From contig OZ076421.1 of assembly GCA_964187785.1 (NCBI GenBank), positions 34,410,001 to 34,474,000 of the forward strand: DNA of 64,000 bases, read 5' to 3'. The DNA is from Amphiscolops sp. MND2022. Lineage: Eukaryota. Made by a program: the position numbers and the translations under genes. Below the pieces are notes generated by a model. It worked only from the letters and a program-made list of their open reading frames with translations. It had not been told where the DNA came from and searched no databases. Shown in pieces: positions 5,798 through 61,818 of this stretch (positions are counted from its first letter, which is position 1; each line of letters begins with the position of its first letter).

Positions 5798-5849
5798 CTT
5801 TTTTTGTTTCCGTATATTGACTGCTGGGCATTATAGGGGGGAGGGACGG

Positions 5850-9389: not shown

Positions 9390-9419
9390 GAATAAAAATG
9401 TTTGAAATTAAACATTAAA

Positions 9420-9860: not shown

Positions 9861-9863
9861 TTT

Positions 9864-15800: not shown

Positions 15801-15804
15801 ACCA

Positions 15805-33400: not shown

Positions 33401-36400
33401 ATCGGCGGCCGACGTGAACAACACTATCTCGTGGATAGTTATGGCTCCTCCCATTCCAACAGTGTTCTTGAAAAAAATATAATACAAAATAAAACGATGG
33501 TATCCCGACTTCAAAATGGGTCAATTTACAAAGTTAATTAAAGAAGAAAACGACTTATATTTAACGACGCGTATATATGTGATGAAGTTTGAATGATGAA
33601 AACACTTTTGGACGATCACTGAGAATCAATCAAGATAGTTAAACCGTGAAAAAAAAACTAAGAACAGTAGATACAAGAAGAGGGCCAATTTTGCGGCTAA
33701 AAGAAGGCAATTTCACGAGGGATCCACAGAAGTCAAACTCGTGCTGCAGAAAATGAATTGATATTTATCATCTGTTTTTACGGTCGCAATAAGGGCGGAT
33801 TATAAGTCCAGCTACACAACCTCATGGCCCTAATGAAGTCATACCATCTGGGGTGATCTGACACCCCTCAACAAAACCGGTAGAGTCAACTGGTTCCTTG
33901 AGACTCCCCCTAGGTCTCCTTGGCACAACCATGACCAGATAAATTCTCTTCACTTCTAACTTATTTATCGTTCATTTCAAAACATTACTGTCGTGCTAGG
34001 AAATTTTGTCAAATTCATAGACTAGCCAAAATTACATAGATAGCCGAAAAAATTATTCGTCTACTGAAATAGTTGTTTCAAGATACTTTTTATAGAAATA
34101 TTAAAGATGATTTGCAGATGATTTCAAAAAAGTGTTTGCTAACACTCGCGAGGTAAGAAGTTCTAGAACTTCCATGTTGAGAGAAAAAGTGTGACTCGCA
34201 AAGATCTAACAATAACATTCAAGATCTTACAGAAAATCCTCAAAGAAACTTGCTTTTAATGGCTTCCTTTCAAAATCCTTACCAATAATGTACTTCTTGC
34301 AGAGATCTTGGAAGAATCTTGGAAAACAATTTTTGACGAGAATTAAAAAGAAAATGTCCATTTGAAAAATCTTGAAATGAAAGCCTCAGAATTTGAGGGA
34401 CCTTACATAGCAAGACCTGGCAAGATCTCGGCAATTATTGCATGTTCTTTAAACCCGGGTTCATACGACGCTCTCTTATACTGGTGTTTATAATTAATTT
34501 TTAAAATTGACTGATCATAATTGCCTTGGTCAAAGACAGAAGCATTGGCCTGGTCGCTCATTTCCAGCAGCTGGGGGTAGAGGAAGTGTTGGGTGTAGAC
34601 AACGGCCAGCCTCACATTGTGGGAGACCACCGTTTTGATGAAGTCAGACACGTACGGACCCTTGGTCTCCGCGTTACTCACCACAAGCACGAAGTTACTG
34701 TTGGGCGAGGTCGTTCCCCCCGGCCCATATGTCTATGCGCGACAAGTTTAGGAAGTGAAAAAAAAACAAATATCAATCAAGGTCTTTTATGATAACATGT
34801 GATGAAAATTCTCTTATGAGCCTTCTTATGAAAAACATGTTTTCATTGAAGAATTAAAACATGTTTTCCTGGGTTTTGTGTTCAAAAATGCCCCCTCAGA
34901 AAACTAGAGGCGGTTCCACACTGAGAAAGATTGGTTTCATTGTATCAGCGCAATTAAAGACAGTCAATTTCTTGGGAAATTTGTGGTATATGAATTGAAA
35001 TAGCACCATAATAATAGCTCCATAATGGAGTTGGAGAAAACACCAGTACTTTTGCGATCAAGAATCTTGATAATAACGTATTAATTATGATTAGATTCAG
35101 ATTAAGCAGCTGATTAACTTCGATAAATGACCTTTGAGAACAAAATACTTCGAAAATGACAACATAATTTTCAAATTCTTGACATATAGCTTGTATAGTT
35201 TATACTCATAAACGTAGATTTCATATGAACTATTTATAATATTAATAGGTAAAAGTTTGAAGTAGGTTAAAATAGGAAAGACAAAGCTTATTCAAGCTGA
35301 AGCCACAAGACGTTTACCTCCTATTGGCAAGCAGATGCGACTAAGGTCAATATTTCAAAAAGATTTCATGTACGTAGACAAATGAGTTAATTTCATTGCA
35401 AATTTGGATGCAGTAACTTTGACATGAGTCTAGTTTTTTTTACAGTTGATTATGTTGTAGAAAGCTAACAAAGTTTTCAATGGCAAGTAGATTTTTTCGA
35501 AACTATCGATAGCTCTTTTTAAAAAATAACTCGAAAAACATTGTCTTTACTTCCAAAATCCATTCTCAGAAACTACTCATAATTAATTGTGTTCGTCCTT
35601 CTACACGCAGATTCGCTTTGTATTGGATGCTTCAAATGCCAATTGGTCGTATTTATACATCAATGGTACATTTAAACCTATTTGTCAGCATTCTACAAAC
35701 TGCATTATATAAAAAGATGACGTTAAAAATATTTTTCAAAGTAGAGTCAACAGACCTCAAGATTCTAGCTGAAATGAACAGAATTAGAAGATTAATTAGT
35801 CTCCTATTAAGCAACACAGATCGTCTTCAACACAAATTCAATGCCAGACTTACAAATTCATTGTCGGTTTCACTTCCAGAACAACCCAGGCTTTTGTAGC
35901 TGGTCAAAAGACCCCGCAAAGATTCCTGGTTCACAGTAGATGCATCAACTTTCAGACTTTGTCTCAGACCTTCAATTGCTTTATTCAAAGTCACACACGT
36001 CGATTCGACATTCATTGCGCCCTAAATTGCAACAAAAAACTCTGATCAAACTTCAGAAACTTTTATAAAGCTTCTACACGTTTCAGAGTACAAAAAGCTA
36101 TAAACTACTTTATTAAACCGATAGAATTTTGAACGAACTTAGGTGAACCTAGATTTCCAACCATCGATCAAGAGCCAAAGAAGCTTCTGGTTTTACAAGC
36201 ATTTACTTTCAACCTCTGCCCATTTTTGAATGAATTTCAGTTCCATTCAAGCATATTGGAAAAGGTTGAAAACGTAAATGCGAAATCGTTTCAAACTTAC
36301 TATCAACTATAAACTAACTAATTCTTTAATCAAGTGAATTTGTCAAGCAGAATTTATGTTTCAGACGATCTGTTATCATGAGTTAAAATATAATCACCTA

Positions 36401-39400
36401 CGTGAATTTATTACATATAATTCATATTACATTTAAAAAATAGGGGACGCCACAAAATGGCCGATTATTAGGCGTAACAAAATGGACGATTTTCGAAGCG
36501 TAAGAAAAGGACCTGAACAGCTTCGGAGACACACCTATAGTGTCCCACGCGTAGGACATTACTTGACTAGCAGCTGGTTTAGACGAAGGCCGACATGGAA
36601 GGAAAAAGGCCGAGTCATACAGCCAATCAAAAAATTCAAAACACTTTAAAAATCGGCCACTTTTGTTATGTTGAAAATCGGCCATTTTGTCGTGCATCCA
36701 TAATATATTATAACTAGAGCTAGCTGAAGCTGATTAAGATATATGATGACAACTCAAAGTACCAATCAAATTAGTTCAGCAAAACCATTTCGGTTATTAA
36801 CCAATTATTACTTCCCCAGTCTACTAACCCAATCAAGGTTGGTAATAGTGGCACCGCCGTCGGCCACACATTTTTTGTACTGGGTCTCCAATTGGCTGAT
36901 CACTTCCGAGGATGAGTCACCACTTTGCCTCATCATCTTGATCGTGTCCATGATCGACTCACAGCTAGCCAATCCAGTCGAAGCTCCCTGCAACCAAAGT
37001 TTCGACACCTTCCTTTTCCCCACAAAAAAAACATCGGAAAAAGCTCGTTTTTGTGTTTTTTTGCAAAAGCTAGGACATGCCTCCTCAAATGTAATGCAAG
37101 ATGTGCTGGGAAAATGCAGTAGTTTACAAGGAGGACACATAAGCCAAAGTTCAGGAGGAGTATTTGAGTAAACTCTTTGTGGGGTAAAGGAAGTTTGTTT
37201 GGCCTCGCTCATTGCGACCCAAGAAGTCGGTTTGGCTCGAGGGGTGAATAGGATCCATGGAACTCAGGAACTCGTACAGTGACTATATTATGATAATATT
37301 ATTTTCCCCTACGTTATCAGTTGTCATCATACACTTTGTAAAATTTTAGTAATGATCGATCAGTCTTAGAGCCTGGACCAGTTATTGGGTTAATTAATTC
37401 TTGATCGATTTTTTAAAAAATTAACCAAAAAGTAGTTGACAGTTAGAGCCGAGTCCAGTTGATGAACGGATGGTCTCTACAATGGTCTAAAAATCAAAAG
37501 GAAAACTACTACACTTGGTTCAGAAAAAAAATAGAAATATCGCTCATGTTTTTGGTCATTTGAAAATTCACGAAAGCTATATTTTTAAATCAAAATTCTG
37601 TTTAACGATTCATCGCAACAACTCGTTCAAATTCATGTTTTTGTGAACGAAGGTGAAGCTTGTTAACCTGTTATTTTAAACGATCAATCGATTAGACTAA
37701 AATTTCAAGTGGCCCAGGCTCTCTAATCAGTCTTAATCACTTTTGAGAACATATGCTTCAGCTAGCTCAAGAATACCGCATAGCATTCCTTTTGAGGAAG
37801 TTTTCCGATACTTACAGCGCCAGAGTCGAATCCGCCCGATTCCAAGCATTTCTTGTAGTTCAACTTGACTCTCTCAATCACGACAGGGTCTGGGTTTGTT
37901 TCAACTTGAAGCGATTTGAGAACAGTAGCAAAATGATCACAAGTGGCAGATCCGCCGCTTCCTTCTCCCTGGAATACCATGCAGTAAGGATACAGTGGTA
38001 CAATTAAATCACCCAAAAATGAAAGGACATCAACCAATGAAACATCAGGAAAGAAGACGGGATTCGAATCTGATTGGCTAATGAATTTCAGAGTAATTTA
38101 ATCACACCACTGTACATCTACTTGAGCTAGCTGATGACCCATGATCGATGGTGGAAAAAACAATAGAAGCTTCTAACAAACAAATTATTTAGTCCTATTT
38201 TATCCCAAATGAACGGAATTTTTGGGGCTTATGAGAAGCCTAATGTCTCACTTAATAGAGTTTAACTTCTTAGGACTGTTGCATGATATTGCCAACTCAG
38301 GTGTAACATCAAGAACGAAAGATGTAAAAACCAAATGTTTTGATATACCTGTCTTCCTTTTTTTAAAATTCAAAAGTCGCCGCAATTTTTCATGAAACAA
38401 CCTGCGGCTTATACTCGATTGCGGCTAACAATAAACAAACACCTTGAGCAAGTAATAATGTCACTTACGCCTTCGTTTTCATCGATGTCTGCCAGACATT
38501 GAGGGTTCTTTTGCATGAGGAGGGCACGCACGGACTGGTCAGAAGACGAAAGGAAAAGTTTGCGAATATCGTCACAAGACAATATTTCAGAGGAGCCGCT
38601 GCCACCCTAAGCAAACGAGAACCCGTCAAAATGTGTATTTGTGACCTATATATTGCAACGATAGGTGGATTGAAAATAAAAATGAGCACCCCTCGACGAC
38701 AGAAGTCGGCTCCCTTAAGCGGTTCAAAAAGCGGAAGGAATCGCTCTTGAAAGTTTTCACCATACTAAAGATGAACTTCTTAACTGAAAGTCGGGAAATG
38801 GGAAATTTTCGGAGAAATGTCGAACAGTGCCGAAAAACACCTCCCAATGGGGACATTCTTAGCGTAAAATGAAGTTGCGAAATTCGCCAAAATTTCAACC
38901 CAAATGCGAGCATAGATAACCCAAGACTTCTGACGCAAAAACAAGTTTCAACACCTCTGTTCATTGATTTCTAAATGCAATAACGGTAAATATTGAAGAC
39001 AAGGATCATTGCGATAAAACTCCTAATTGACAATACCATGCAACAAGTTCTTAAACCAAGCCAAACTCTCAAGGTTAGAAGACACTTTTGCCAAACTAAT
39101 GATAAAAGCTACAGGAAATAAAAGCGATGATCTCAAACTAACGGAGCTCTGCGCCCGACATTGGTCGAGACTTTGTCGACTAAGATCGATCATGTCTTTG
39201 TTACCGGAAGCTTTCGCGTTCTCGTAAATTTGCTCCCACTGATCACAGTTAACGTCACTTCCACCGATCAAATCTCCAGGTCCCTGAACAAAAAATGTGC
39301 GAAAGTTTTGAGAAAATATGCTAATATATTGCGACAAATTAGTGCAGTAAATGTATGCAACCAACAACGATAAATAACTTCAATTTTATTGAGGCCGAAT

Positions 39401-42400
39401 TCGCTTTATTTTGAAATCTCGCAGAAGACACTGAGAGCAGTGATCGGTGGAAGTCACAAGATAGCGACACTTGGTTTAAGGTATTTCAACAAACCCAATT
39501 AGGTTAAATTTCCCCAACACTATCGAAAGAACATTTCAATTGGCCCCGTCACAGCCAAGAAACAACGATCAACTTACAAATTACGCCACGCTGCATTAAA
39601 ACTTTTGTGGTCATTTATTGGCGTTTATGAATCAGATCTTTCAAATTTTGTGTGACTCAGCTTGAAGATGTTCTTTCGACTTCAGGGGAAAAGTTAGTCG
39701 ACAACCCTACCTGTTGATTAGCGAGACAAGTGAAATAGGCGTCTCTAGCCAACTGTTTTTGTTTCTCCGACAAAGAGTTATCTTTCATGGCCGTGTTGTA
39801 AGCCTGTTCTGCACTGGTACAAGAAACCCCCTCCGATTGGCCACCGTCTACACCCGAACCACCCTAAACAGCCACGATAGTACCGTGTTACCCAATTGGT
39901 TAATCACTTTGTTTGGGTCCATCAAAAATTTCGCCGATGAAGGGTCTGGTTTGTTCGGCAGCTAATTTTATTCATTCAACAACTCGTGCAACAAGGTTTT
40001 ATAATTTTAAAGAATCATCGAATAAACCAACCCTTGGTTGAAACAAAATATCAAAACATTTTCAACACGATAAAAAATGTCCCTGTTTTATAGGCTCGGT
40101 TTATTACTTCTCAAAGTTTTTCAAAAATTGAAAGTTCCAGGTCGACAGCAAAATGTGGGACCTAAACCCAACCTATTAGTTAAGTCAATAAGCCTACAGG
40201 TAAGTAGAGCAATCCTGAGATTGAATGTCACTTCCTAATGGGAGGTTCGGAAGGGGTTCACTCGTACCACAGAACAAGCTGTACAAATTTAATCAACAAG
40301 CATGAAAAGTTAATGAAGCATTTTTGCCTAGATAAGGTGATTGTGAGTCAAACTTCAGGGAAGAATGATGAAAACCAAACCTTATTAGTTAAAGTGTTAG
40401 TTAGTTTTTAATTCGTTAGTTAAGTAACAAGAGCTGAACGTCTCAAGTCCTAATTAGGGCACTGCGTGGACTAGTATGTTGAAAAAAATCATTCTGATAC
40501 ATTCTGTGGTCTGACGAAAAAAAGCTAGTCATTGCAATAGTCGACCAAATTTTCTTACAAAATAAGCCGACTAAAAACAACACGGAAAAGTTAATCAAAA
40601 GTTGCCAACTAGACAAAAGCTTTCACACTTCATTCTCAATTGACTCAGCCTACAATTGCTACAGCAAAAATGCTTCTAAGAGGACAAAAGCGACTGGTTT
40701 CCAGAAATTCGGAAAGTTGTTTTCCGATTCCTAAATCAGATAAGCATCAATCTCGATGAAAATATAAAATCTCTATAACCGGAATATCAACCAAAACTTT
40801 ATTAGTAATCCACATCAAATAGAAAAAAAACTAATTGGAGAAGATTTAGAACGAACCGAGCTCGGGTCTTGGTTTTGGCAAGCTTCGAGGTCATTTCTCA
40901 ACAATCGGATCAAATTAGAAGCCAAGCCATTAGCTATGCCCTCTCTCAAAGCCTCCAATTCCTTGTCACAGCCTTCACCTGACCCTCCAACTGACACCTA
41001 CGCAACAAACACCCAAAATATCTTCCATTGGGCAGAATTCCACCAATTAGAAGCCGTCATTCACATTCAAAGGGGTTGACTTTGACTATGCAAACTCTAA
41101 ATGACATTGACCACTAGTTAATTCATATTCTTTGTATCAATCGAAGCGGCTTATAGCCGGGCGAATTATGTTTTCATAAAGTCATGAGAAAATTTTTATG
41201 CGAACAGATTTTAAGCATAATTGAGCTAATTTTTGATGATTTTGATCTAACTCAGACAGCAGTTCTTGAGAAGAGTCAGTGGTATGCTGCTATAGATAGA
41301 CGTCTATTTAGAACGGTGTTAAGTCGAGAATGAGCTATTCAGTGGAGTTCGAAATAGACTAGGTCGAAAAATTTAGAATCCATATGCAAATTGGGATACC
41401 TCAGATTTGAGAACTTTCCATTTTTGCTCTACTCGATTCAAACAATTTGAAATTTTCAATGGGCTCTCATTACCGACGAATTGAGGAATTGGTAATCGGA
41501 TCTCCGCATAAGTTGTAACCTCTTTCAAAGTTGGAAAATCAATAGTATTGGGTAAATATCATGGAAACGTGGCTCTGAACTCAAGGGATCAGACAATACA
41601 AGCGGATGAATCTAAACAGGAACTGCAAAATGTAACAGCGAAACACTTCCAACTATGTGTGAGCTTGAAGATAAAACTATCGACGGAAACCAGGAAAAGC
41701 AAAATAAAGACATGGAACAGAGTCAAAATCTCAATCCTCGCATACTCTAACTCAAACTCAACTTGACTTGATCTAATTACAAGTTGTTAAATGATACAGC
41801 TATCCCAAAACCCCAGGAAGAGTACAAAAAGCACACAAATTGATCAGTATCACAGACCACAGAAGGGAGACAATCATGAAAAAGAGCAAAAAGGACGCAC
41901 CGATCCTTCAGACGATTCTTGAACACACTTCTCGAGCGATGATTTCAACATCTGGATGACGTTGGCAGAGTATCCCAGTTGGATTCCTTCCTGGTAAGCC
42001 TGTCTTTCTTGTGCACAAGAAATGCCGTCTCCTCCTATTACAGAGGGATCCACCTGGGAACAACAACAAACACCACTTACAACAAATACAACTTTCTCCA
42101 CATTTTCCACACTTCGTGGAAAACGTTCGGATCGTTTGAATCTCCGGGGAAAAACGACAAATGAGGAGCTGAGATGGCATTAAGTTTTTAGCATTGGGTC
42201 GGAAACCACGTCAAAATTAAGCACGAAAACCAACCAAAAGCTAATCAAAAATTGAAACGTTAATCACTGCTCATCAGTTAGGTTAAACATCACGACGCCA
42301 GTTCATTATTGAGACAAAAGAGAATCGTATTCAGAGACCTCAAAACCTCGCCAACTTTAACAAAATAATGAAAAGGCCGAGGACAAGTTAGCGGTATATC

Positions 42401-45400
42401 GGAAACCAATCGAAACCCTCCAAGACACAAGAACACAAACCTATACAACAAAAGTCATCAAAACTTCCACCAAGCCTCATCTTGATTTATGCAATCACCT
42501 CGAAACGAAAACCTCAAAAAACTACTCAGAAAATTGCTCGAAAGATACACTCATTTGCTTATCTTGAGGAGACAGTGAAGAGCATCGACAATAAAGAAAC
42601 AACATCCAATTAGTAAGAGAATTTTGAAATCAAAGCATGCCGAAAACAAAACGCCTTCGACACAAAACTACCTGCTGATCATTCTGACACTGAAGCAACG
42701 CCTTTCTGAGGACGTCCAAAATCTCCTGGTTGAATCCACTGCGTATTCCATCTTCCAAAGCTCTCTGCTCTTTATCGCAGCCACTGATATCAACAGCAGA
42801 TGACCCACTCCCAGATTCCTGAAGAAAACTTGTTGGATTGAATATTGAAACTCCGTTGTATGTTTGGGCTGATAACACGTCGGTTTTTCGTGATTATTAT
42901 AAACAGGAACCAAGCGGCAAAGGAACAGTCGATAGTAACGGGAAATTTCAAAGTTAGAATGAATAAAAAGTGCGAATCATTGAAACTAACAATTTGTTTA
43001 AGTCGACTAGAGTTATGTTTCCTGATTTAATGAGAATGAAGTTTAATAAAGTTCAATAAAGATTTGTTGTCCAAGATGAACCGCGTAGAAAAACTCAATT
43101 TGCCTAAAAAGTATTTCTAAGTAGCGAATGTAACTGACTCAAAACAAACGATATCAAGTGACGACATGGGAAACTAGAACGAGAAAAGAATCGATCCCAT
43201 AACATCACATTAACTAATAATCTATGATGCAAGGACAAAACTCGAAAATAGTTTTGACAAAAATTGGGAAAATTTTAATTTTGAGAACCGTAACAACCAT
43301 CATCATCATCTCACATGATCCTTGCTAAAAAAGCTCACCTTGAAAAATTTTCAGGGGAAAAGTAATCATTGCAATAACCTTACAAACGTTTCCTTGCTAA
43401 ATCTAAGGAAATTAACCCCTGGCAAAATCTTGCAACTGCATTTTTTAAGAAAAACATTGTTTACAAGATCTAGCAAGGGATCTATTAGACATGGATATTG
43501 CACGATTCTTCCAAAGAGTTAAAGGAAAATGCATTAACTTGTAAGATCTTGAAAGATTCTCGCAAGATCCGTGCAAGGAAGCTGCTTTTTAATAACCAGG
43601 AAGGCCAAAACTTGATCGAATCCTGCAAACATTTGAAGAAATGATCCTTTCAGAGTGAAAAGTTCAATCAGCGACTCGACACACTAAATATAAGAGAGCT
43701 GCAATACGCAAACCAGAGAAGAAATAGGTACAACCGCACCTTTTAGAACGCTTAAGCTACCACCATTGTTGAGAATTTCAGCAAGTTACTGCTTGAGTGT
43801 CAAAATGCTAACTGCAAGCATCAGGTTGGTCCCCTCCATTACAATCTCGATTCAGAAGCACAAACTGGCCTATGTGAAACTGGACGTTGAAAAGCAGCTA
43901 AATGAACGAAAACAGACCAGATCGCTGACAGACTAATGAGATCAATGCCAAACAGGAAACCATTTTTATCCATTTCATTATCCCCCAATGAACATAGAGA
44001 TCGTAGCGAATTTTCAAAAAATATGGAAAACTGTTTTCAACCGTTAACATTGCCACAACTACGCATATCAGTGGACACATAAATGAACTATAAGAGTTTG
44101 AAAGGTGCAATCACAGGCTTTAATTTTGCTTCTGTGAGCCCATATCGCCATGCCCCTTTCTTAACAATTACCGTTTCTTTTTCCGGTACCGCTGCTCCTC
44201 GGCCATTCCGCACTTCCTTCGTCCAACCCGCTACGTCAGTGCTTGTAACAACAGCATATGTGATTTTGTTGCACGAGACCTTGCTGTGTAGGGGTATAGG
44301 TTGCCGTTTTATATACTTCACGGAGTTTTGAGAAAATTGGCTCTCATCAATAAGATAGTACTGGAAGAAACTAAATATTTTTTTCAAGAAAAACAGAATT
44401 TCTTAACGACGGAGAATTTCTAACCCTTCTGCTGTTGTTCAAAAAAGGTACAAAAAATACAAAATATAAACTGTGATATTGTGGGGATGCCAAAAAAAGT
44501 TTTAGAGGACAGCCATTGAATTTCATTAGCAACTTAGTAAACGCATTTTTTAAAATTTCTGATTCATTCATTGTTATGGCCATATATGTTCAACATTCTG
44601 ATGCTACGTTAAATATTCATGTCAAATGTTCCATTTTTCAAAACTGCTAATAGAAAACGTACTGACTAGCTGCACTATTGCAGTGAATAGTTTTACCTTC
44701 AGACCCCAGAGCTCATATCGTATGGTCAACGTTTCACAGAATTTACGCCTACGATCTAAAACATACCCAGAGAAGCTAAAGGGTCCTCCCTTTCGGCGCA
44801 CACTTTCCGATGATCTACGAAACTACATTACAAGGATATTTTCGGAACTGTGCAATTTTTGATAAGTTTTCAATCAAAGGGTCACCCTTTAGTTTATTTG
44901 ACATTTTCGGTTGCCAAGAAGCCCTTTTGAGCCCATTCTTTAGAACTGTGAGATTTCGCCATGAAAACTTTTTTGAAATTCAGAGAGATTCACCAGCATG
45001 AATGTTAGGAACAAGAGCATTCTTTACAAGGTCTACAGTTCTGCAAATACTCGGGAAATTTCACAAAATTCTCAATTTTCCGGACAGTAACCTTTTCTTT
45101 GAAGCTGTCAAGTTTTAAAGTCTCGAGACATTATCATTTTAGCGGCTCGTTCTTGACACGAATCACAATCAATTTCAAGTGACGTAAAGAACAATCCATC
45201 AAACTAACAAAAACCTCACTCTCAAACTTGCATATTCAAGTTAGTAATGCGATCAATTAATTCACAACCCCAAATCAATTCCAAGGACAGCATGCTACGA
45301 ATAAAGGCAACGGACTGCAATAAACTACCTGCTGATCCGACTGGCATTGGAGCAACGCCTTTCTGAGCACATCCAAAATTCCCTGGCTGAGACCATTGCG

Positions 45401-48400
45401 AATTCCATCTTCCAGCGCTTGCCTTTCCTTGTCGCAACTGCCGTTATCAACCGAACTACTTCCCGAGTCCTGAACAACACCAAACGTTGCGCCATCCATG
45501 ATCATTGAGAAAATGAAGTTTCGTATAACTATGTTTCGTATTACATAGTTGGGATAACACCAACATGCAATAGCAAACAAGGCATAATTTGTTCTAAATT
45601 TGGATACTGAAATTGAGTTCAATAGGAACACATCCAGATGGTCAAGCCCGTGAAAGAAAATGACAATGAAGATTCACCTCGGAGTGGGAGATTGCTTACG
45701 TCACAAAAAAACCGTCGCAGACTTAAAACAAAACACGCAAAGCATTACACGGATTCAAGCCCATGAACCCATGTTCCGACAACAACGCAATGGGTTCCAA
45801 AAAAACCAACAATCTACCTCTAAGTCCCATTTTGCAATCCTGGCTTTGGAAAGAAAACGAACAGTAACAGAAAGAAAATGACCAATTTTGGAAACGCACT
45901 TCAAACTTGGTGAATCTTTCCATTCAAGACAGATTTCTCAAAACAATTCTCATACGTTTCTCTGGGAGCATCCAAATTTTGGCCTATAAGCTTCGTTGCT
46001 TGGATACAGGAGAAAGTTTCTTAGACACTTGAAAAAAAGAGAACACTACTTGAAAAGTATTTTTCGCATTCGCTCCTTTGAAAGTAGTCCAAGATTTCAG
46101 CAAATGATTGATTGGGTAATACCGAACACACGCTCGTTTTAGTATCTCATAAGCTGCTCTGATAACTAAGTAAATAATTGGCTCAGCCGTTGGCTACCGA
46201 AAAAAAGTAACTGTCAATGTTACTAAACGATCCATTTTTCATTTTCGTAGTAAATCATTGTATGGTGTCAGAACAATTAATGCCATGCAATTTTAACTGT
46301 AGGTTGCCATTGCAAACTCTCACACTTTCAACCTTTCGCATTCTCAACCTACTGCTATTTAGATGCTATCAAATATTGAAGAATTGATCCAAATTGGCCA
46401 CAAAATTACATTATCGGAAGAGTATTTCATCATACAATAAGTCGAACTTTGGGTGATTAAAATGTAAAGAACAGGCAATGTAATTCATCAAAAGTGGCGG
46501 AAAAATTTGCGTATGTTGTTTTTAGAATGTTTGAAGAAAAAATCGAAGAAAGGAAATGTCGCGTAACTGCGTTCAACGCAGTACAAGAATACCTCTTTTT
46601 CCGATTGGCATTTCAACAGTGCGTCTCGCAAAACTTCCAGGGTTGCCTTGCCTAATCCATTTCTGATTCCGTTATCCAGAACTTCTTGCTCCCGTTCACA
46701 ACCATCGGTGGACGCGGAACCCGCGCTAGCCTACACAAATACAAGGTGATCCACTCAAAAATGTATTTCGACAATCATTAAAACTTACAAACAAACTAAT
46801 AGCGACATAAAAATTGATTGGTTTTTAGAAATCGAATCGCATGGAATCTTGCAGACCTGAATCAGAACTGAATTGGTATAAAAATGAGGTTCATTTTTTT
46901 ATTGGATCACCATGTATTGACTTGTATAACTTTTCCAACCTAATTTCAATGAATTGCTTTGCTTGTACGAATTATATATGCGAAAGTTCACAGAGTACGT
47001 CGAATTCCACAATGCAAACAAAAAGGTTTAAAACTAGGTGTTCAGTGTTTGAAGCAAGGGTATTTCGATTTGTTCAACCAAGAACGGAAAAATTCAAGTA
47101 CTTCAAATTTCGAAACTTTTCAACCGGAATGACTTGAAGTAAAAGAATTTGGTCCATTAATGAAACCAGGACCATTATTCCTCACTCAAAGTATCCAAAG
47201 TCCCAAATCGAAACGAGTCTCCACATTGGCCATAGGGAATGATACTGAAGAATGGCGAGACGAAACGTATATTTATAGAAACTTGAATTCTAAAATACAA
47301 GGACAAATCTGAAAAGCAAGAAATGAATCGGTGAAGCACAATGAAACGCCACAGACAACAATTGAATCGAGTAGGATTTTTGAGTTACGCTTTGCTTAGT
47401 AACATTCAGAAAAACCCTGCAAGTAAAAATGAATGAGTCATAATGGATGCACAACGGAAACAGAACCTGAAAGCTGGTCAATTTCACAAAATGAACTCAC
47501 GAATCACGATCAAAGTGACATACAGAATTTCGAAAAGCTGAATGACAAGCATTTGCTAGACAAGCCGATAAAGGCCCAATTCGGCGCTTGCTCAAAATTC
47601 AGGACGAGCGAAGTGTTTTGAATATGCAAAGGGACACAATTGTGGGAATTTCAACCGATTTAACAGTGCCGGAAAATTCCCAAAAGGATACCCCTAAGAC
47701 TTAAAAACCGCTTTTCCATAACTCAAAACATCAAATAACCAATTGAAAAGATCGGTCTTAAAACGCAGTGTCGCACCAGCGGACGCTTTAACAACTGCGC
47801 TTTACTGTAAAAAAAGATCGGCGTTTGCGATATTCGAATCCACAACGTAAAGAGTAGCGCGTGCACTGGAGTGTTTGAAGATCGATCCTAATCGAGAACC
47901 ATTTTTTTTGCCGCGGCAGAAAGATTTTTGCGTCGTTCTCTAGCCACTAGACCAACTCCCGCTTGATTTCAACTTGTAGAAAAATTCAGCTCATTCCGCA
48001 GACTTGAATTTGGAAAGAGCAGTCGGGTTAATGAAACTTGTGGATTTGAAAAAAATACATATTTGGTTGCTCAAGATTTTTTAAAATGAACTTTACGAAG
48101 CATGAACTGCAAAAAGACGGTGCACTGTAAGATCTCTGCTTTAGGCTACAATAACCAATAACTTCAAAGTTCAATAATAAGCTGAGAGCGATTCAAGTCG
48201 GTGCCCGCTCACGGCTCAAAAGAGTAAAGTTTTTTAAATATGCAAAAGGACACTATTGTTAAAAATTTATCAATTTTATAGTTCCGAAAAAAAAATCCGA
48301 AGGGATACGCATAAGACTCGAAACAACTTTCCCCCAACTGGATACAAAAAAAAACATTTTTTGAGAAACAAATTTGAATTTTTTTCACGAGGTATAAGTC

Positions 48401-51400
48401 GTTTGGTGCCGAAAGAATCATTTTGCACAATGATTGAGAAAACTCTCATCAGTCCCACAGGACTAAAAAATAATCAGAGGTTACCCTTAAGGAGTCCTCT
48501 ATGTTCGCAAAACGTTTCTTGTAAAAATTGAGGGGGAGTTTTGATTTTAAAAAATTAGAGAATAGTCGCATAGAAAAAGCGCTGGTCTTAAAGTAAAATT
48601 CGGATACAGGATACCGCGTGCTGTGCCACTGAGAAAACCTACTTTTCAAAGTTAAGTTAAGCCGAAAAACATTTTTGAAAAATCTCACAAGGCCAAAAAT
48701 TCCAAAAGGGGACCCTTTGGTCTTTTTGAGAATCCAATTTGTTGCAAAATATGAAAACAAATTGAAGGGAGACCCTTTGAAGACTTCAAAAAATTCCGAA
48801 AAAATCTTACAAAGCCGAAAAATTGACGGGGAAACCTTTAGTCTCGTCCGTTTTTGCAAAAGCACAAAAAGTTGCTGGATGAAGCTGGGACTCGAACCGG
48901 CGACTCGATGGGGAACGTTGCTATTCGCGAATACTCTCAATAGTTACATCACTTAAAGCTCATTGTCGAACGGAGCTACCAATCACAATTTAGAATTCAA
49001 TTGGTTTCTACATTATTATCGAGCAGCTATACTTCCCATCACCAATATCACAAACTATAAAAGTTCACACCGCCTTTGATTCTTCGCGGGCTGAAGAAAA
49101 TACTACTACTAAGTTCGCATTCGCATGACGTCGTTTCGCATTGGTATTTGAGTACAAGCGAAGCTCTCGGAGTACGAATAAATAACTCTCGTTCATTTCA
49201 TCTCAATGAACTCGGCGAGCGAATATTTAGAATTCGTTTGCTTCATCTGATTAACCCGGAATGAAGGTGTAATTTTCTGGATGCATCCAAAAATCTGGTG
49301 CTTAAACTTTAAACCGCAATATCTCCAAAACTATTCGAATCCGACAAACGATTTATACAGCGTCCAAAAGAGGAGCATCAGGCCTTTCTAATCAATTTTT
49401 AAACTGCTGGGATTCGCCGCGCTGGCTCCGGACTTTGCGCCAAAACTTTGCACGCGTGGCGTCTCTTGCTGCAGTTCAGCTTGTTTCAAAACATGCTAGG
49501 GTCCCTTTGACTTAATCTTGTCCCCAGTATTATAAAGTGGCCACACAGGAAAACAGGGAAATTGGAAATTTTACGCTAATTTTTTTTTGATTTTTTGGTC
49601 CCGTTTTTTTATTTCGGAGAGATCAAGTCAACAATCCGTGAAAACGCGTGCAATTCTATGTTGTTTTGTCTGAAAATCTTATTCAAGAGTTTTCTTTACC
49701 ATACGGTGGGCTGGTGCCTTTAGAAGTCAGCAGATCTTAAGTGGTGCAAATACGTACCGCAATAATAATAGGTTAAAAGCACTGCCTCGCTGCTACCTTA
49801 ATGAAATAAACTAGCCAAAGACTTGAAGTAGCACTGCCTCAATTGCAGAATTGGGTCGATAATAAGTCAGGAAAAATATTTACGGCTTCTATAACATTTC
49901 AGCTCATGCTAAAATATTGAAAACAATGAAAGCGACAAGAGCCAACATATTGTGCATTCCCTCAATTCAACCATCCCGGAATCTCGAATTGCATCTTTTG
50001 AATCAGTTCTATTACGTTAGCACTGTTGTTTTACAATAATAAAGGTGTGGATTTTACGAAGAGTTCTCTCACGGAAAACTAGCGCGAATAGTTTCAGAAA
50101 AAAAACACTGCAGAATTCACTTTCGATTCCGACGACGCAAGCTTCCTCAATCATCCAAGTGAAACGACAAACCAAGTCAAAATTAGTCAAGTCTAACTGA
50201 AAAAAAACCTTACTTCTTTGCACTTAGAGTCGTAGCTTTCTTGAAGCATTCGCTCAAGAAAGTCATCTCCCATTTGATTGGCCGCCGAAATTCTCGCTTG
50301 CAACCCTTCACATTCGGATTCTGAGCTTGATCTCCGCTGACGATCTTTCTGTGAGTTTTCATAACAATTTTATTAGATATTAAATCATGCCAAAATTAAT
50401 AGGAAAAACAAAACAATTCAGCAACTGACCTAAACTATCTCTCCGGTGGTCGCCCAATGAAATTGAATGTTACTGATTAAGTTTCGACAACTGGCTAATA
50501 ACGATCAGTGGAACAGGATTTGATGATGAATCAATGTCCTTCACGGTGACTCCTTCGCCAACTTTGAAAAGTCCCCACGTAAAATTTAATGCATCAAGAG
50601 AACGAAAAGTAGTTATTGCCGTGAAACAAAAATTTCGGTGGACTTTGGAAAGCAAACGAATCTACTTCATTAAGGACACGAGTGTATACGGGCCCATGAG
50701 ACTAAAAACTAGAGGCAGAACGTCTTTACACACGACCGAGGGAAAAATTTTCTTAACAATTGGTCACTTGCCAAAGACAGCAACTGCTATCCACAGGTTT
50801 GTTAGCTCAAAATGAGATTGTTCCAAAAACTTTTACCTTTTCAAAACTTTCTTCATTCTCATAACTTCTATTTCTATTTGCACGACAATTAAGTCTCGTG
50901 AATTCAAGACGAGAGGCAATAGAATAGTGTTACAGAAGATCCGAACATCGTTCAAAAAATTTCACTATGCTTGGTAATTAGCAAATATTAGGCAGGTAAA
51001 AATCTGCAAGACCAAAAAATCTAAAGGCAGAAGCGATTGTGGTACGGTAGAAATCATATCTAAGAACTTCGTGAAAAAAGGTACACTTGATTCAATCTAT
51101 ATATCACTAACTTCATTCACACTTCCTTTGCAAGGAAATGGGGAAACTAAAGAGAAAAACGATACTGGACATCATTGGACATTATATAGAAGTGCCATTT
51201 CCAGCTTCTTTCAATAGGATTGCAGGATTTTGCGAAAATGAAACAAAATGTCAAAAATAGGATTCACCTGAGACAGTCTAAAATTCAATTGAGATGAAAG
51301 AGACAAATCACATGCAATCTTTGGAGTTTCACGACAAAATTATAACAAAAACGATTTTTATGGATGCTTCTTGAAGGCAACATCAGCTGTATCACACTCT

Positions 51401-54400
51401 CTTCACCAAATCTTTTCTAAAATACAACAAACTGCTACTTTCCCGGAAAGCTGGAAAATGGGTGTTGTAACACCAGTCTGGACCAGTCTCGAAGAAGGGC
51501 GACAAAATCGCAGTAGAAGACCACAGACAAATATCACTGCTACCAATTGCATCAAAAGCCTTTGAGAGATTCATTTTTATAGATTTATACAAACACTGCT
51601 CGACCATATTGAACAATCCCCAATATGAATTCCGTAGAAGACACTCAGCTGCACTACAATTACTTGTTTACAAGGAACATCTTTACAAATCTGTTAAACA
51701 GGGTACTGAATTTGAAGTGGTGTACATTGATTTTGAAAAAGCTTTTGACAAAGTTGACCCGGTGTCATTCTTCGCAAGTTGTGGCAAATCGGCGTTAGAG
51801 GCAAGCTGTGGATGACAATAAAATCGTATCTACAAAACCGAAGACAGGTTGTCAAAGTTGGCAATTCCTTTTCCAAAATAGTTGGGAAATATGAATAGTG
51901 GGGTTCCAGAAGGCTCACTGCTAGAGCCACTCTTGTTTCTGATACTAATCAATGACCTTCTCGATGTCTGCGTCTCCAGCGACTGCCTCGCGTGTGCAGA
52001 TGACGAGAAAAGTATGAGCCGTATGGACTCAGCACTGTTCCAAATCGATCTTTAAAAATTCAGTGAGTGGTGCCTAAGGAACGTTATGCCATTTAATGCC
52101 ATGAAATGCAAACTTCTGAGCTCTGCTAGCTCACCTAGCGCAATATCGATTTCCAACTTCCCGGTCAAGGCGGTCATCACTTATAAAGACCTAGGCTTGT
52201 GCATCAATACTAGCTTAACATGGGATGAGCACATACAATACAAATGTTCCCAAGCAATAAGTCTTTTTCATGATCAAACGAAACTCTGCAAATCTGTCAG
52301 TGATAGGCAAAGTAAACTTGTACAAAACGATGACTCTTCCTATTATAACATACGCGAGTCAATGCTGGTATGCTACAACGACTTCATTTATAAAGCTTTA
52401 TAAAGACGAGCTGTTAAATGGATAACGTTCGATAAAGATCACCGCAGTGGCCTTATCTCAACAAATCTCCTACCACTATCACTGTACTTACAGTTACTGG
52501 ACCTCATGATGCTTTCAAAAGTTATCAATGGTGGTTGTGACATTGACTACTCTAGTTTCGTCACTGTTATTAATAAGCCAAACAGCATTTACCCTACGCG
52601 CCTAGACTTGCGAACTCGGTTAGCTATCGAGAAACCACGAACGAGAAAAGAACAGTGCTTTTGGTACAGGGCACCAGCCACTGTAAATCGGATTGCAACT
52701 GCGGTAGACTTCTTCAACGCTGTTAACCTCGAAGCTAGAATTATCAAATACATGTGGCTTATTATATCGAAGGTGACTCCGACTCTTGGAGAGTATGACA
52801 ACTCAGAAGATGTCCCTTCACGGTCTTGCAATTACCTTTGTATACATTTCTAAGTCAAGTGCACGATGTTTCTGAACTGACTGAGAAATTGAACCAGAGA
52901 AGTAAACGAGATATGAAAATAAAAATTGGTCCTCGAAATTTGTGAAAATTCGACATTTTGAACCATCATTTCTCGAAATTGAAAACAAAATGCAAAAATC
53001 AGTTCCGTTCAAATATTCGAAGCATTTAAGGATTTTTATCTGCTCGTCTTCTGCATGTGATTTGTTGATTGAAAACCTGGAATGCTCAAAAATTTAGAAA
53101 ATTAATTAACTTGATTTGATTTTTGATTGAGCCTGAAAAAAGTGAAATTTTCGATGCAATAAATTGGCTGGATGATTTTTGCCTGCTCATAAAATGTGTA
53201 TTTTATGACGTAGTTTGTTGGTCTGTTTTTTCCAAAGTTTGCCGTAGTCCCTTTTCTCAAGTTTGTGACAACTTCGAAAAATGGCGACAAAAATTGCATA
53301 GATGTATGAATGGCAATTTTCAGATATAGATAACTTTCAATATACCCAATCAACAAATGATTATTTTTGAAAGTGTTCAAAAGGACGTTTGTAGACCCTT
53401 CCGGGCTGAAAGTAGTCACGGTATTGAGTGGGCACCTTGTTTACGGAGTTTTCTTGGAAGATTGAGCCGTTTTTTTTCTTGGAAATAGTTTCTAAAATGC
53501 AAATCAACTTGTTCATTTCTTTTTTGTTTTTTTTTCGTTCACTTCAACTGTGAATGCTTTTCACTTTGCTTTAGTTAGAATTAATCGCTGTGAAAATTTA
53601 ACTGTGATAATTTATCTTTAGTAAGAGTTTTAACACTGTGTTAAAAAAGAAATTTCCGTATCTAGCTTTTCCGTCAACGTTTTTTCAAGCCGCATGCTGA
53701 TCAATTTTAACCTCAATTCCTGTTTTCATTCGCGGCTGATGCAAATGCTCGATTTTTTGGTAGGTTTGCATATCTGGTTTTCCCCGAAAATTGAACTCAA
53801 CTCTCCGCTCCTTCAATTCAGGGTTTTGACCTCGCTAATTCTCTAAAAAGCATTTTCCCGAACGGTTAAATATTTGGTCTAAAGAATGTTAGATGATGAA
53901 ATGATTGTTTTTACAAGAGAAAATGTCGGAAATTTTATACTTTGTGGACTTTATGAAAGGAAAAATTGAGTTTTTCGACATGTATTTTGAAACTTTGTGT
54001 ATACTCTGAAGAAATTTTGGTATTTCACATGCTTAGTTGCCGCTAATTTGAATCGCTAATGAAATCGCTAAAAATTCCTATGTGGCCGCTAATTCGCTAA
54101 ACCGCTAACTAGTGGTGTCAAAACTCTGCTGCAAGTATGATAGTTGTATAACTGGTAATGTGTCGTCCTCAAGTATTTAAACCGCAGTATCTCCAAAACT
54201 ATTCGAATCCGACAAACGATTTATACAGCGTCCAAAAGAGGAGCATCAGGCCTTTCTAATCAATTTTTAAACTGCTGGGATTCGCCGCGCTGGCTCCGGA
54301 CTTTGCGCCAAAACTTTGCACGCGTGGCGTCTCTTGCTGCAGTTCAGCTTGTTTCAAAACATGCTAGGGTCCCTTTGACTTAATCTTGTCCCCAGTATTA

Positions 54401-57400
54401 TAAAGTGGCCACACAGGAAAACAGGGAAATTGGAAATTTTACGCTAATTTTTTTTTGATTTTTTGGTCCCGTTTTTTTATTTCGGAGAGATCAAGTCAAC
54501 AATCCGTGAAAACGCGTGCAATTCTATGTTGTTTTGTCTGAAAATCTTATTCAAGAGTTTTCTTTACCATACGGTGGGCTGGTGCCTTTAGAAGTCAGCA
54601 GATCTTAAGTGGTGCAAATACGTACCGCAATAATAATAGGTTAAAAGCACTGCCTCGCTGCTACCTTAATGAAATAAACTAGCCAAAGACTTGAAGTAGC
54701 ACTGCCTCAATTGCAGAATTGGGTCGATAATGTCAGAAAAAATATTTACGGCTTCTATAACATTTCAGCTCATGCTAAAATATTGAAAACAATGAAAGCG
54801 AGAAGAGCCAACATATTGTGCATTCCCTCAATTCAACCATCCCGGAATCTCGAATTGCATCTTTTGAATCAGTTCTATTACGTTAGCACTGTTGTTTTAC
54901 AATAATAAAGGTGTGGATTTTACGAAAAGAGTTCTCTCAAGGAAAACTAGCGCGAATAGTTTCAGAAAAAAAAACACTGCAGAATTCACTTTCGATTCCG
55001 ACGACGCAAGCTTCGTCAATCATCCAAGTGAAACGACAAACCAAGTCAAAATTAGTCAAGTCTAACTGAAAAAAACCTTACTTCTTTGCACTTGGAGTCG
55101 TAGCTTTCTTGAAGCATTCGCTCAAGAAAGTCATCTCCCATTTGATTGGCCGCCGAAATTCTCGCTTGCAACCCTTCACATTCGGATTCTGAGCTTGATC
55201 TCCGCTGACGATCTTTCTGTGAGTTTTCATAACAATTTTATTAGATATTAAATCATGCCAAAATTAATAGGAAAAACAAAACAATTCAGCAACTGACCTA
55301 AACTATCTCTCCGGTGGTCGCCCAATGAAATTGAATGTTACTGATTAAGTTTCGACAACTGGCTAATAACGATCAGTGGAACAGGATTTGATGATGAATC
55401 AATCAATGTCCTTCACGGTGACTCCTTCGCCAACTTTGAAAAGTCCCCACGTAAAATTTAATGCATCAAGAGAACGAAAAGTAGTTATTGCCGTGAAACA
55501 AAAATTTCCGCGGACTTTGGAAAGCAAACGAATCTACTTCATTAAGGACACGAGTGTTATACGGGCCCATGAGACTAAAAACTAGAGGCAGAACGTCTTT
55601 ACACACGACCGAGGGAAAAATTTTCTTAACAATTGGTCACTTGCCAAAGACAGCAACTGCTATCCACAGGTTTGTTAGCTCAAAATGAGATTGTTCCAAA
55701 AACTTTTACCTTTTCAAAACTTTCTTCATTCTCATAACTTCTATTTCTATTTGCACGACAATTAAGTCTCGTGAATTCAAGACGAGAGGCAATAGAATAG
55801 TGTTACAGAAGATCCGAACATCGTTCAAAAAATTTCACTATGCTTGGTAATTAGCAAATATTAGGCAGGTAAAAATCTGCAAGACCAAAAAATCTAAAGG
55901 CAGAAGCGATTGTGGTACGGTAGAAATCATATCTAAGAACTTCGTGAAAAAAGGTACACTTGATTCAATCTATATATCACTAACTTCATTCACACTTCCT
56001 TTGCAAGGAAATGGGGAAACTAAAGAGAAAAACGATACTGGACATCATTGGACATTATATAGAAGTGCCATTTCCAGCTTCTTTCAATAGGATTGCAGGA
56101 TTTTGCGAAAATGAAACAAAATGTCAAAAATAGGATTCACCTGAGACAGTCTAAAATTCAATTGAGATGAAAGAGACAAATCACATGCAATCTTTGGAGT
56201 TTCACGACAAAATTATAACAAAAACGATTTTTATGGATGCTTCTTGAAGGCAACATCAGCTGTATCACACTCTCTTCACCAAATCTTTTCTAAAATACAA
56301 CAAACTGCTACTTTCCCGGAAAGCTGGAAAATGGGTGTTGTAACACCAGTCTGGACCAGTCTCGAAGAAGGGCGACAAAATCGCAGTAGAAAACCACAGA
56401 CCAATATCACTGCTACCAATTGCATCAAAAGCCTTTGAGAGATTCATTTTTATAGATTTATACAAACACTGCTCGACCATATTGAACAATCCCCAATATG
56501 AATTCCGTAGAAGACACTCAGCTGCACTACAATTACTTGTTTACAAGGAACATCTTTACAAATCTGTTAAACAGGGTACTGAATTTGAAGTGGTGTACAT
56601 TGATTTTGAAAAAGCTTTTGACAAAGTTGACCCGGTGTCATTCTTCGCAAGTTGTGGCAAATCGGCGTTAGAGGCAAGCTGTGGATGACAATAAAATCGT
56701 ATCTACAAAACCGAAGACAGGTTGTCAAAGTTGGCAATTCCTTTTCCAAAATAGTTGGGAAATATGAATAGTGGGGTTCCAGAAGGCTCACTGCTAGAGC
56801 CACTCTTGTTTCTGATACTAATCAACGACCTTCCCGATGTCTGCGTCTCCAGCGACTGCCTCGCGTGTGCAGACGACGAGAAAAGTATGAGCCGTATGGA
56901 CTCAGCACTGTTCCAAATCGATCTTTAAAAATTCAGTGAGTGGTGCCTAAGGAACGTTATGCCATTTAATGCCATGAAATGCAAACTTCTGAGCTCTGCT
57001 AGCTCACCTAGCGCAAAATCGATTTCCAACTTCCCGGTCAAGGCGATCATCACTTATAAAGACCTAGGCTTGTGCATCAATACAAGCTTAACATGGGATG
57101 AGCACATACAATACAAATGTTCCAAAGCAATAAGTCTTTTTCATGATCAAACGAAACTCTGCAAATCTGTCAGTGATAGGCAAAGTAAACTTGTACAAAA
57201 CGATGACTCTTCCTATTATAACATACGCGAGTCAATGCTGGTATGCTACAACGACTTCATTGCGTACACTTGAAGCTTTATAAAGACGAGCTGTTAAATG
57301 GATAACGTTCGATAAAGATCACCGCAGGGGCCTTATCTCAACAAATCTCCTACCACTATCACTGTACTTACAGTTACTGGACCTCATGATGCTTTCAAAA

Positions 57401-60400
57401 ATTATCAATGGTGGTTGTGACATTGACTACTCTAGTTTCGTCACTGTTATTAATAAGCCAAACAGCATTTACCCTACGCGCCTAGACTTGCGAATTCGGT
57501 TCGCTATCGAGAAACCACGAACGAGAAAAGAACAGTGCTTTTGGTACAGGGCACCAGCCACTGTATATCGGATTGCAACTGCGGTAGACTTCTTCAACGC
57601 TGTTAACCTCGAAGCTAGAATTATCAAATACATGTGGCTTATTATATCGAAGGTGACTCCGACTCTTGGAGAGTATGACAACTCAGAAGATGTCCCTTCA
57701 CGGTCTTGCAATTACCTTTGTATACATTTCTAAGTCAAGTGCACGATGTTTCTGAACTGACTGAGAAATTGAACCAGAGAAGTAAACGAGATATGAAAAT
57801 AAAAATTGGTCCTCGAAATTTGTGAAAATTCGACATTATTTTGAACCATCATTTCTCGAAATTGAAAACAAAATGCAAAAATCAGTTCCGTTCAAATATT
57901 CGAAGCATTTAAGGATTTTTATTTCTCAAGAAAACCTTGGTTGACGGCCAGAATTGAAAAAAAAACGATTCTTTTTACAAAGTGAACTTTGGCATTTTGA
58001 TGTTGAAAAAAAAACATAAAACTGTACGATATCTAATACTCCTTCGGGAATTTTTTCCTAGGTCGCAAAATCACTGAATTCATCCATCAAAAAAGTCACA
58101 GCTTGATTTCTATGCTGTAAAGGCAGCGCACTTAAGAATAAGGAGACATTCAAACAACTACATCAAATATTGTAAATCAGACACTTTGAGTGTCAGATTC
58201 CAATGTTTATTGCACAATTTCAAAGTGAAAAAATCTTGCCTTCAATCGACCCCTATAGCAAACAAAATGTCACCAATAATAAAAAAGGCTAAATACGGAG
58301 AAACAATGGTCGTTAGTTGACTAGAACGGCACGAACTTTTTCGAAGAATTTTGGGAAAATTTATAACAAGTCATTCGATTTGATAGACTACCCCCAATTG
58401 ACAGACCTTAATATAATACGAATAAAAAACTGAACTTTTGATTCGGAAAATTTGCTGATAAAAACTGCTTGAAAATGAATGACTTTGAACATCAGCTTTT
58501 TTCCGAAGTTTAAAATTTTAAGGCAGCTTTTTGCGAAGTTTCACCTTTTGAAAAAAAACGACGTCCTATCTTCTTTAAAAACACCCACCGAATAGCGTCA
58601 TATACCTAAGAAGAGAACTTTTTCTTCGAGTACGCTTGATACCACGTTAAGGGTTGCATTCCAGAAAAAAACATCTGATTGCTTACTTCTTTGCATTTGG
58701 ATGCATAGTTCTCCTTCAACATGCCTACAAGGAAGTCATCGCCATTTCTTTCAGCTGCCGAAATTCTCTCTTCCAAAGTCCTGCATTGAGCTTCGTTCTC
58801 AGAACTCGATCGGCGAATTCGATAACTCATATACTGTAATTTGAAACTTGCCACTCTATTGAAAAGCAAAAAACCACAGCTGCAATCGAACTAAACTGAA
58901 GTGTCTCCCTAGTAGAGCCTGTTTTTGGACAATTCTACAAAGATTTCTTTTTAGAAATCGAAAGTTACTGAGAAGGCCAGAAACGATACCATATATACGT
59001 AAAACTGGAAAATGGAAGAAGTTTTAAAATGAGACCTTGACAAAAACTAAACCAATTAAAATCTACGGAGAAGAGACAAGCAGAAAGACGAAAATTCTAT
59101 TTTTGAACCAAGAAGTTCACCCCCTGGCATTGAGTAAGTTATGCGGTTCCCATCAAAGACTAAACTGCTGGGCTATACAACCAACTCAGGTGAGTGTCCG
59201 GATAATTCAGATCTTCGTTCAAGTCGTATGTATCTGAGACCCCATTTCGCGACGACTAAAGTTAAGACCACCCGGTTATTTCGTATTTCTCATTATTCGC
59301 AAAATTTTATTCAATCCCTAGCGATACGAATTAGGCGGATTCAACTATACTCAAGTACCAACTGGAAGTCTTTTATTAACTCGGCGTTTACTGTTAAGAC
59401 AAAATCGACAAATTAGAGATTTTAAAAAGACGGTTGCGACGAAAAGGATATGGCGGCCGATTTGTGATTCACATGACAATTGGACTAGTGGTTTGAGCGC
59501 AGGACTTGAGGCAGAACCATGGGGTTCAAATCTCACTACTGTTCGATTTTTTGCACCGGCTCAGAGCTGTTCTCAACTTGAAGAAACAACCCAATATCAA
59601 TAGAACAACTCAATTGAGGCTCAAAACGCAGTTTGAGAAACTTTTGAAGCCCATGAAATCTTAGTACTGACTGAAAACATCATAAAAATCCAAAACAAGG
59701 AAAACAAGCAACTGTTGCCCATATAGGGCGTTTTGTTCAAAAAAAGCTGTTTTTCGGGTATTTGCACGGAACAAACCGTGGCTTCTAATTTTAAATAGAC
59801 CGGAAACGACCCAAGTCGGCGCCTCGCTCAAGGCTCAAAAAGAGCAAACTGTTTTGAAAATGCGAAGGCACACCATTGTTTTTTAAAATCAAATTTACAG
59901 CGTCAAAAATACTCGAAGGGATACCCATAAGACTCGAAAAACCGCTTTTTTCTTAGCTCGAAAGTTTTCAAAAAGTTTTTTCTTCCGGAAAAAGTCGAAC
60001 CCTTTGTTATCCCTCTACTTTTGCAAGCATAAAAATCTTGGTTTAATACGGGACTCGAACCACGTGTTCCTGCTTCACTAGGCCCTGAAATCCATGTTTT
60101 ACCACTGGGCCAAGAGGCCGGGCCACTTCAGTAAATTCAATTTTAATTCAATATTCCATTCAAATTTTACAAAAGTGGACGTTTCACGGTGACTGAAGAA
60201 AAAAACGTGGTACTGTAAGAGGCTTGCACCGACTAAAACGCCGACTAAAGAAGATAACGAATACAGGACATTCCAGTCCATTAATACTTACCTCAACGCA
60301 CTTTTCTTGATAACTCTCTTGCAGCGTTTTCTCGAGAAATTCGTCGTTCAAACCCTTGACCAGTGCAATTTTCTGTTCAAGAGTCTGACACTCTTCAGAA

Positions 60401-61818: not shown

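Follow-up and report, generated by a model that had tools for sequence, protein, structure and literature searches.

A CLCA-type gene of the acoel Amphiscolops with a furin-site repeat array in its VWA domain, a candidate source of small acidic peptides

The hairpin-coding exons at 50214..61818 of a 64,000-nucleotide stretch of the acoel Amphiscolops sp. MND2022 (contig OZ076421.1; the whole stretch is called the window here) appear from their sequence to belong to one ~81-kb minus-strand gene, which is likely a CLCA given its CLCA_N domain and domain order. The architecture of the gene (a signal-like start, CLCA_N, a VWA domain, an array of small modules, FN3 and a transmembrane (TM) helix) can be taken as nearly certain. 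The array is inserted in the VWA domain. The reading favoured here, with modest confidence, is that proprotein convertases release from this array 14 small acidic peptides, helical and probably disulfide-closed, leaving a CLCA scaffold behind, and that the peptides act as binding modules of mucus or a surface coat. Coordinates above 64000 continue those of the window into 60 kb of added upstream sequence (the contig position is the value given plus 34,410,000), features lie on the minus strand unless another strand is named, and genome-wide searches covered the 1.07-Gb assembly.

Joined by coordinate, the exons form a single open frame of 2704 aa from the ATG through all 41 array exons to the second half of the VWA domain; the splice donors of array exon A13 and of the first exon after the array (34732) are uncertain. 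The original prediction had looked for a signal-peptide exon beyond 61.8 kb, and a signal-like exon does lie there (99038-98868, 37 kb beyond 61818): it has a hydrophobic stretch from residue 8 (KD 2.2) and aligns with the N-termini of two orthologs, the call being made from hydropathy only, with no dedicated predictor. The CLCA_N/Cys exons follow at 98802-95518, three of them exceeding the cut-off of Pfam CLCA_N (PF08434). The VWA domain then starts normally (94218-93970) and breaks off past helix 4 at 93970, and the array begins. The gene runs on across the end of the window, which falls in the intron between the array exons C3 and C4 (61819..64000). Beyond the array and the second half of the VWA domain, a beta-rich region and the start of FN3 (21007..25200; exons near 25200, 24369, 23706, 22973, 22193 and 21234) were located by tblastn with the orthologs (E 5e-3 to 2e-18), and the end of FN3, the TM helix (exon 19035-18812) and a cytoplasmic tail with the stop codon (18328..19741) by ortholog alignment. 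FN3 and the beta-rich region were named after the ordinary CLCAs to which they align and after a published description (PMC6851300), not by a Pfam match. Within the beta-rich region, near 23520, an acidic insert bears a KR-S site that the orthologs have as well. Searches of the genome returned one CLCA_N locus, with no second, and one FN3-exon match (both lower bounds), and a search of Rfam gave no match. Eight kb upstream of the gene, on the other strand, lies a 296-aa open reading frame (107071-107958, +) that resembles a rhodopsin-type GPCR by inspection.

The array consists of 41 intact exons (2209 aa), each encoding one module with two cysteines in phase 0/0, and its modules fall into four classes in the order A14, B7, C9, D11. 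Class A (14 exons, 86845-71765) has the spacing C-x29-33-C and Gly/Ser linkers; class B (7 exons, 71211-67623) has C-x27/28-C and then a basic site; class C (9 exons, 67539-50214, of which C1-C3 lie at 67539-64458) has a basic site and then C-x27-29-C; class D (11 exons, 35854..46730, at 46730, 45469, 42818, 42053, 40997, 39863, 39283, 38606, 37968, 36987 and 36021) has Gly/Ser linkers, C-x25-37-C and no furin site. The original prediction counted 14 hairpins in the window where 17 are found, six with a site and 11 without; it was right that the later ones, the 11 class-D units, are joined by Gly/Ser linkers free of R-X-[K/R]-R. A broken B-like remnant near 70920 is separate from the 41 frameshift-free exons. 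With the twin pair C8/C9 excepted, paralogous exon cores show dN of 0.10-0.35 and dS of 1.6 to saturated (B4/B5: dN 0.21, dS saturated; C3/C4: dN 0.14, dS 1.6), so the exons are coding and under purifying selection. A hydrophobic stretch after exon 39283 was considered as a GPI signal and rejected, as it lies past the GT donor. An incomplete copy of the array, from A8 to C2, occurs on contig C1 (9384175-9397850), upstream of a papain-family exon (PF00112) and apparently in an intron of a papain-family gene; frameshifts in several exons and an LTR-retroelement insert mark it as dead, and it was rejected as a second functional gene.

The modules appear to be helical. In AlphaFold2 models C7 forms two helices (pLDDT 78.5) and A10 forms three (79.2), and the terminal pair of cysteines suggests that the modules are probably disulfide-closed, the AlphaFold2 outputs themselves reporting no such bond. 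The units scanned have no Pfam or PDB sequence match. Foldseek returned no match at E<=0.001 for the class C or class A models, only generic helical ones; VIA gave a best Z of 3.9 for the class A model, and the ESM Atlas gave unnamed matches of <=0.84 for C7. Comparing the class profiles gave no significant match (A/B, E 0.026; C+D/A, E 0.12) and so no proof that the classes share an origin; the tree of units was a quick one on 39 columns with many open forks.

The furin-type sites are confined to one part of the array. R-X-[K/R]-R stands in all 15 consecutive linkers from B1-B2 to C8-C9, in none of the 25 other linkers and nowhere within the Cys loops. Shuffling the 2209-aa array 5000 times gave a mean of 0.61 sites and a maximum of 5, although the 15 sites are not independent events because the units are duplicates of one another. 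Cutting of this B/C block by convertases is probable, and the Amphiscolops genome has convertase P-domains at three loci. The five sites of the original prediction were all recovered before the first Cys of their own minus-strand AG..GT exons, each in phase 0/0 with C-x29-C: C4 (H1, RRKR-SS, 61672..61818); C6 (H2, RLRR-TV, 60292..60438); C7 (H3, RIRR-SS, 58687..58833), the predicted two-helix hairpin; C8 (H4, RQRR-SS, 55082..55216); and C9 (H5, RQRR-SS, 50214..50348). The list lacked C5 (61129..61287), whose RSRR-LA is a sixth site in the window, and its five are among the last six of the 15. Nor are these hairpins the most N-terminal ones: 24 intact unit exons with nine more sites lie further upstream. 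Cutting of the whole block would yield 14 peptides instead of about five (after trimming, 41-53 aa with exactly two Cys each), of which C8 would be the last. C9 had been counted among the released hairpins; it would stay tethered because no site lies C-terminal to it, and it would cap an arm of Gly/Ser-linked units that does lead to the TM helix, as had been proposed. The protein around the furin block is not a simple peptide precursor but a CLCA with an array in its VWA domain, and 15 further units would stay on the N-terminal side.

C8 and C9 are identical as protein, their cores differing by a single synonymous change, and sit in a duplicated 3.75-kb block (49308..57922) whose copies, at about 49308-53039 and 54176-57922, are 98.8% identical. 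The block is either a recent duplication or an assembly artefact. A fragmented LINE with an RVT_1 match was copied along with it (50900-52850 and 55770-57730, +), and its halves are parted by one copy of a ~1.1-kb element (53040-54175) that recurs at 25600-26640 in the opposite orientation. Elsewhere in the window, a Polinton/Maverick-like element (~1300-17250) has long open frames matching an integrase (rve), an A32 ATPase and an adenain-type protease in Pfam, together with a 1410-aa frame and two frames that resemble DNA polymerase and capsid genes by inspection, with no Pfam match; a ~498-bp tandem repeat occurs three times within it (5840-7270).

Word-index protein searches with one C exon and one CLCA_N exon gave no match; a full HMMER search queried with a single CLCA_N exon found two proteins of 2484 and 2322 aa at 88% identity, both RefSeq "uncharacterized" entries, from Convolutriloba macropyga (LOC142340535) and Symsagittifera roscoffensis (LOC134854903). 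Each has CLCA_N (E 5e-61 and 3e-63), the array and the TM helix in one chain, with 28 units in the longest Symsagittifera isoform (XP_063727338.1) and 27 in that of Convolutriloba (XP_075247227.1). Their Pfam VWA match ends at profile position 90-91 of 174, which is where the array starts. The split VWA domain, the A-B-C-D class order, a zinc motif reading REWGH and the furin block are common to all three acoels, as is the joining of the last C unit to the D arm; exons of one unit each also occur in genomic fragments of the Symsagittifera cluster. Conservation of the RxxR sites in orthologs, on which the original prediction had staked its claim, is borne out in both: each protein has five strict sites and two minimal RxxR ones, which all fall in the B/C block, and no strict site outside it. 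The number of basic sites does vary, from 15 in Amphiscolops to about seven in each ortholog. Convolutriloba opens its array with an additional short Cys pair (residues 447-454), in the place that unit A1 takes in Amphiscolops and Symsagittifera. Unnamed ENA exon fragments with REWGH, one at 91% identity, suggest that a further species has the gene. A CLCA model of Tigriopus californicus (1757 aa) apparently contains two CLCA units and may be a fused annotation.

The scaffold has departed from ordinary CLCAs at two sites. First, REWGH replaces the zinc motif HExxH, with Arg for the first zinc-binding His. Among the best 150 CLCA_N matches, 113 of the 128 motif-bearing sequences have HExxH and four have RExxH, all of these acoel-type; an unnamed ENA exon fragment outside the four also reads REWGH. 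The metalloprotease site looks dead, and self-cleavage has likely been lost. The same substitution is reported to be frequent in CLCA_N (PMC3650047). Second, the MIDAS is degenerate: DVSTR stands for DxSxS, the T is kept, and N replaces the D of the LTDG of ordinary CLCAs. The second half of the VWA domain resumes at 34732, in frame with the array; this exon (m1, 34535..34732) was the top match among 3163 ORFs for an HMM built from the VWA second halves of 58 ordinary CLCAs (E 0.0024), and it aligns with them in register. Further diverged versions follow at 27178..33520, namely m2 (exons at 33520 and 32868), m3 (31834 and 31298) and m4 (27528), the last two being weaker calls from low scores and inspection. 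The tandem after the array (34732-27178) holds two clear versions and up to four in all. The closest relative of m1 is the Convolutriloba version (E 1e-4, 3163 ORFs) and that of m2 the Symsagittifera version (E 4e-7), these two ortholog versions being barely alike; the copies may be mutually exclusive modules. A complex prediction for the Symsagittifera first half with the Amphiscolops second half, with alignments unused, scored 0.04.

The RefSeq isoform models of the orthologs, 23 from Symsagittifera (X1-X23) and 41 of at least 44 from Convolutriloba (found among lengths of 1277 aa and more), do not differ outside the array. Within it they keep 17-28 units in Symsagittifera and 18-27 in Convolutriloba, and their junctions that depart from the reference number 24 and 43. 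What most models lack is a single contiguous block of the C/D zone; class-B units alternate, and no model skips class A or the last D unit. The unit pairs that are most alike (0.77-0.88) are unskipped save for one B pair at 0.77, and the units skipped most often resemble any other unit at only 0.35-0.5. This pattern speaks against mis-mapped reads as the source of the differences, so far as RefSeq models with their reads unseen can tell. In 11 of the 64 models (1/23 and 10/41), one or two strict sites are left.

These features could be combined as follows. In VWA domains the turn between helix 4 and strand D faces away from the MIDAS. Folding would bring the two VWA halves together, and the array would loop out from that turn, opposite the degenerate MIDAS; because the insert exits away from the MIDAS, the halves should share one sheet and keep the N-terminal chain attached to the membrane chain once the array is cut. 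Cleavage of the B/C block by a convertase would take place in the Golgi or in secretory granules and may stand in for a self-cleavage that the altered protease site can likely no longer perform. The scaffold would remain anchored in the membrane, carrying two arms of modules strung like beads (A1-B1 and C9-D11), and the peptides set free, by analogy with vertebrate CLCA1, would be co-secreted into mucus or a surface coat, where they would serve as small binding modules. How many modules a protein carries, and which, would depend on the skipping of contiguous exon blocks. CLCA1 is a major mucus protein, and the CLCA architecture is highly conserved while the purpose of CLCA cleavage is open, according to a study of the family (PMC6851300). 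A bolder version, put forward tentatively and with more doubt than belief, adds up a dead CLCA protease, a VWA domain split by some 30-40 exon-sized units, two tethered arms, shed hairpins, block skipping and alternative VWA second halves into a splice-programmed dispenser of peptides and an identity coat, whose repertoire per cell or per worm would serve recognition, possibly of algal symbionts or kin. Symsagittifera roscoffensis and Convolutriloba macropyga are both photosymbiotic.

The favoured reading gives the freed peptides a function, and the first alternative denies them one: the B/C block may be a cleavable spacer whose cutting opens the loop to give two arms or matures the scaffold, the freed pieces being waste. 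The cross-species divergence is in its favour. Mean best core identity between species is 0.36-0.40 for B/C units and 0.45-0.55 for A/D units (Mann-Whitney test against Symsagittifera with C9 omitted, p about 1e-6, the units not being independent), and this faster divergence of the B/C cores would fit relaxed constraint as well as diversifying function. Copy number is labile, most of the block can be dropped in the isoform models, and an outside cut may suffice since the protease site is altered. However, one site would be enough to open a loop, yet a basic site stands at each B/C linker in all three species; both cysteines are kept in the B and C exons, and their dN is far below dS. A pure spacer is unlikely.

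The original prediction had left the role of the peptides broad (signal, defence, toxin or pheromone-like). Paracrine signals or pheromones, cut from a gene that would be a membrane-anchored prohormone with splice-encoded identity, would agree with the peptides' size, their one possible disulfide, the species-specific expansions and the combinatorial isoforms. Against this, none of the 15 sites is preceded by Gly, which leaves no amidation signal, the predicted peptides have no terminal motif in common, Pfam and PDB sequence searches gave no similarity to a hormone family, and the large conserved scaffold with its 27 unreleased units would go unexplained; a signalling role is distinctly unlikely. 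Toxins or antimicrobials fare worse. Amphipathic helices (hydrophobic moment 0.44-0.65), faster divergence and a multi-copy precursor design would suit them, but all 14 peptides are acidic (net charge -2 to -8, pI 4.1-4.9), whereas membrane-lytic peptides are typically cationic; there are two Cys only, and the scanned B and C units gave no match to a toxin family. Of the earlier range, a toxin or antimicrobial of the cationic kind can be set aside as unlikely, and the toxin reading as a whole is very improbable. That the hairpin exons are a nested gene, or are normally removed by splicing from an ordinary CLCA (with every exon in phase 0/0, the entire array could drop out in frame), or that the basic sites go unused, is scarcely credible given that none of the 64 ortholog models is array-free (among lengths from 1277 aa; a shorter form could be missed), that the genome searches returned a single locus for CLCA_N and a single FN3-exon match, as lower bounds, and that site positions are conserved across three species.

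The predicted peptides are defined candidates to look for by mass spectrometry in acoels that can be cultured, and the gene product may be a surface molecule of high diversity; the photosymbiosis of the two named ortholog species makes a link to symbiosis testable. One lineage has likely lost the CLCA protease site and gained a convertase-type repeat array within the VWA domain, which makes the gene a natural example of a VWA domain tolerating a 2000-aa insert and adds module classes with no Pfam family or solved-structure match. No description of an acoel array CLCA was found in a literature search that left subscription papers mostly outside (supplementary single-cell marker tables could name the gene), nor was one found of a peptide array in a VWA domain for the CLCA family; the main text of a Praesagittifera single-cell preprint (10.64898/2026.09.27.754747) does not contain "CLCA".

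Compared with its own family, the acoel protein has the order of human CLCA1/2/4 and of a bryozoan CLCA (Watersipora XP_067949142.1), that is signal, CLCA_N/Cys, VWA, beta-rich, FN3 and TM, and over the first 400 aa of the bryozoan protein its identity to the acoel orthologs is about 33%. Unlike other CLCAs, it has a VWA domain split by a two-Cys array (~1460-1490 aa in the longest isoforms of the orthologs, 2209 aa in Amphiscolops), a degenerate MIDAS and a convertase block. Cys pairs of the array type number 1-6 in seven checked non-acoel CLCAs of >1200 aa and 18-27 in the acoel proteins (one unrelated 7068-aa match was left out of this comparison). Outside the family, parallels can be drawn with several kinds of precursor. 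Granins are acidic proproteins with basic sites, and plant vicilin-buried helical hairpins are disulfide-closed and released from a host protein; no homology to either was found, and the acoel modules have another cysteine pattern and another host. The traits of neuropeptide precursors (short peptides, a terminal motif and Gly-amidation) are missing. The Notch S1 site and SEA-type heterodimers show that a loop can be cut while the halves stay joined as a membrane-held two-chain protein, but there one cut falls in a short loop, whereas 15 cuts are predicted in the 2200-aa loop of the acoel VWA domain. Symmetric exons give many isoforms in Dscam1 and in the schistosome micro-exon genes; in the acoel array the skipping is mostly of one block, the modules are helical and not Ig, and part of them is predicted to be cut off. 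Units of nematode polyprotein allergens (NPAs) and filaggrins are larger than the acoel modules, with no NPA homology in Pfam or PDB sequence matches for the units scanned. The regularly spaced furin-type motifs of the B/C block, though of that block only, nevertheless liken it to such tandemly repetitive polyproteins (nematode ABA-1 and filaggrins among them), in which units are parted by K/R-X-K/R-R and cut to many products (PMC3079579). Units there are alike in function with few or no introns between them, whereas the acoel array has an exon per unit, only a third of its units are flanked by sites, and the whole is set within a membrane-anchored multidomain protein.
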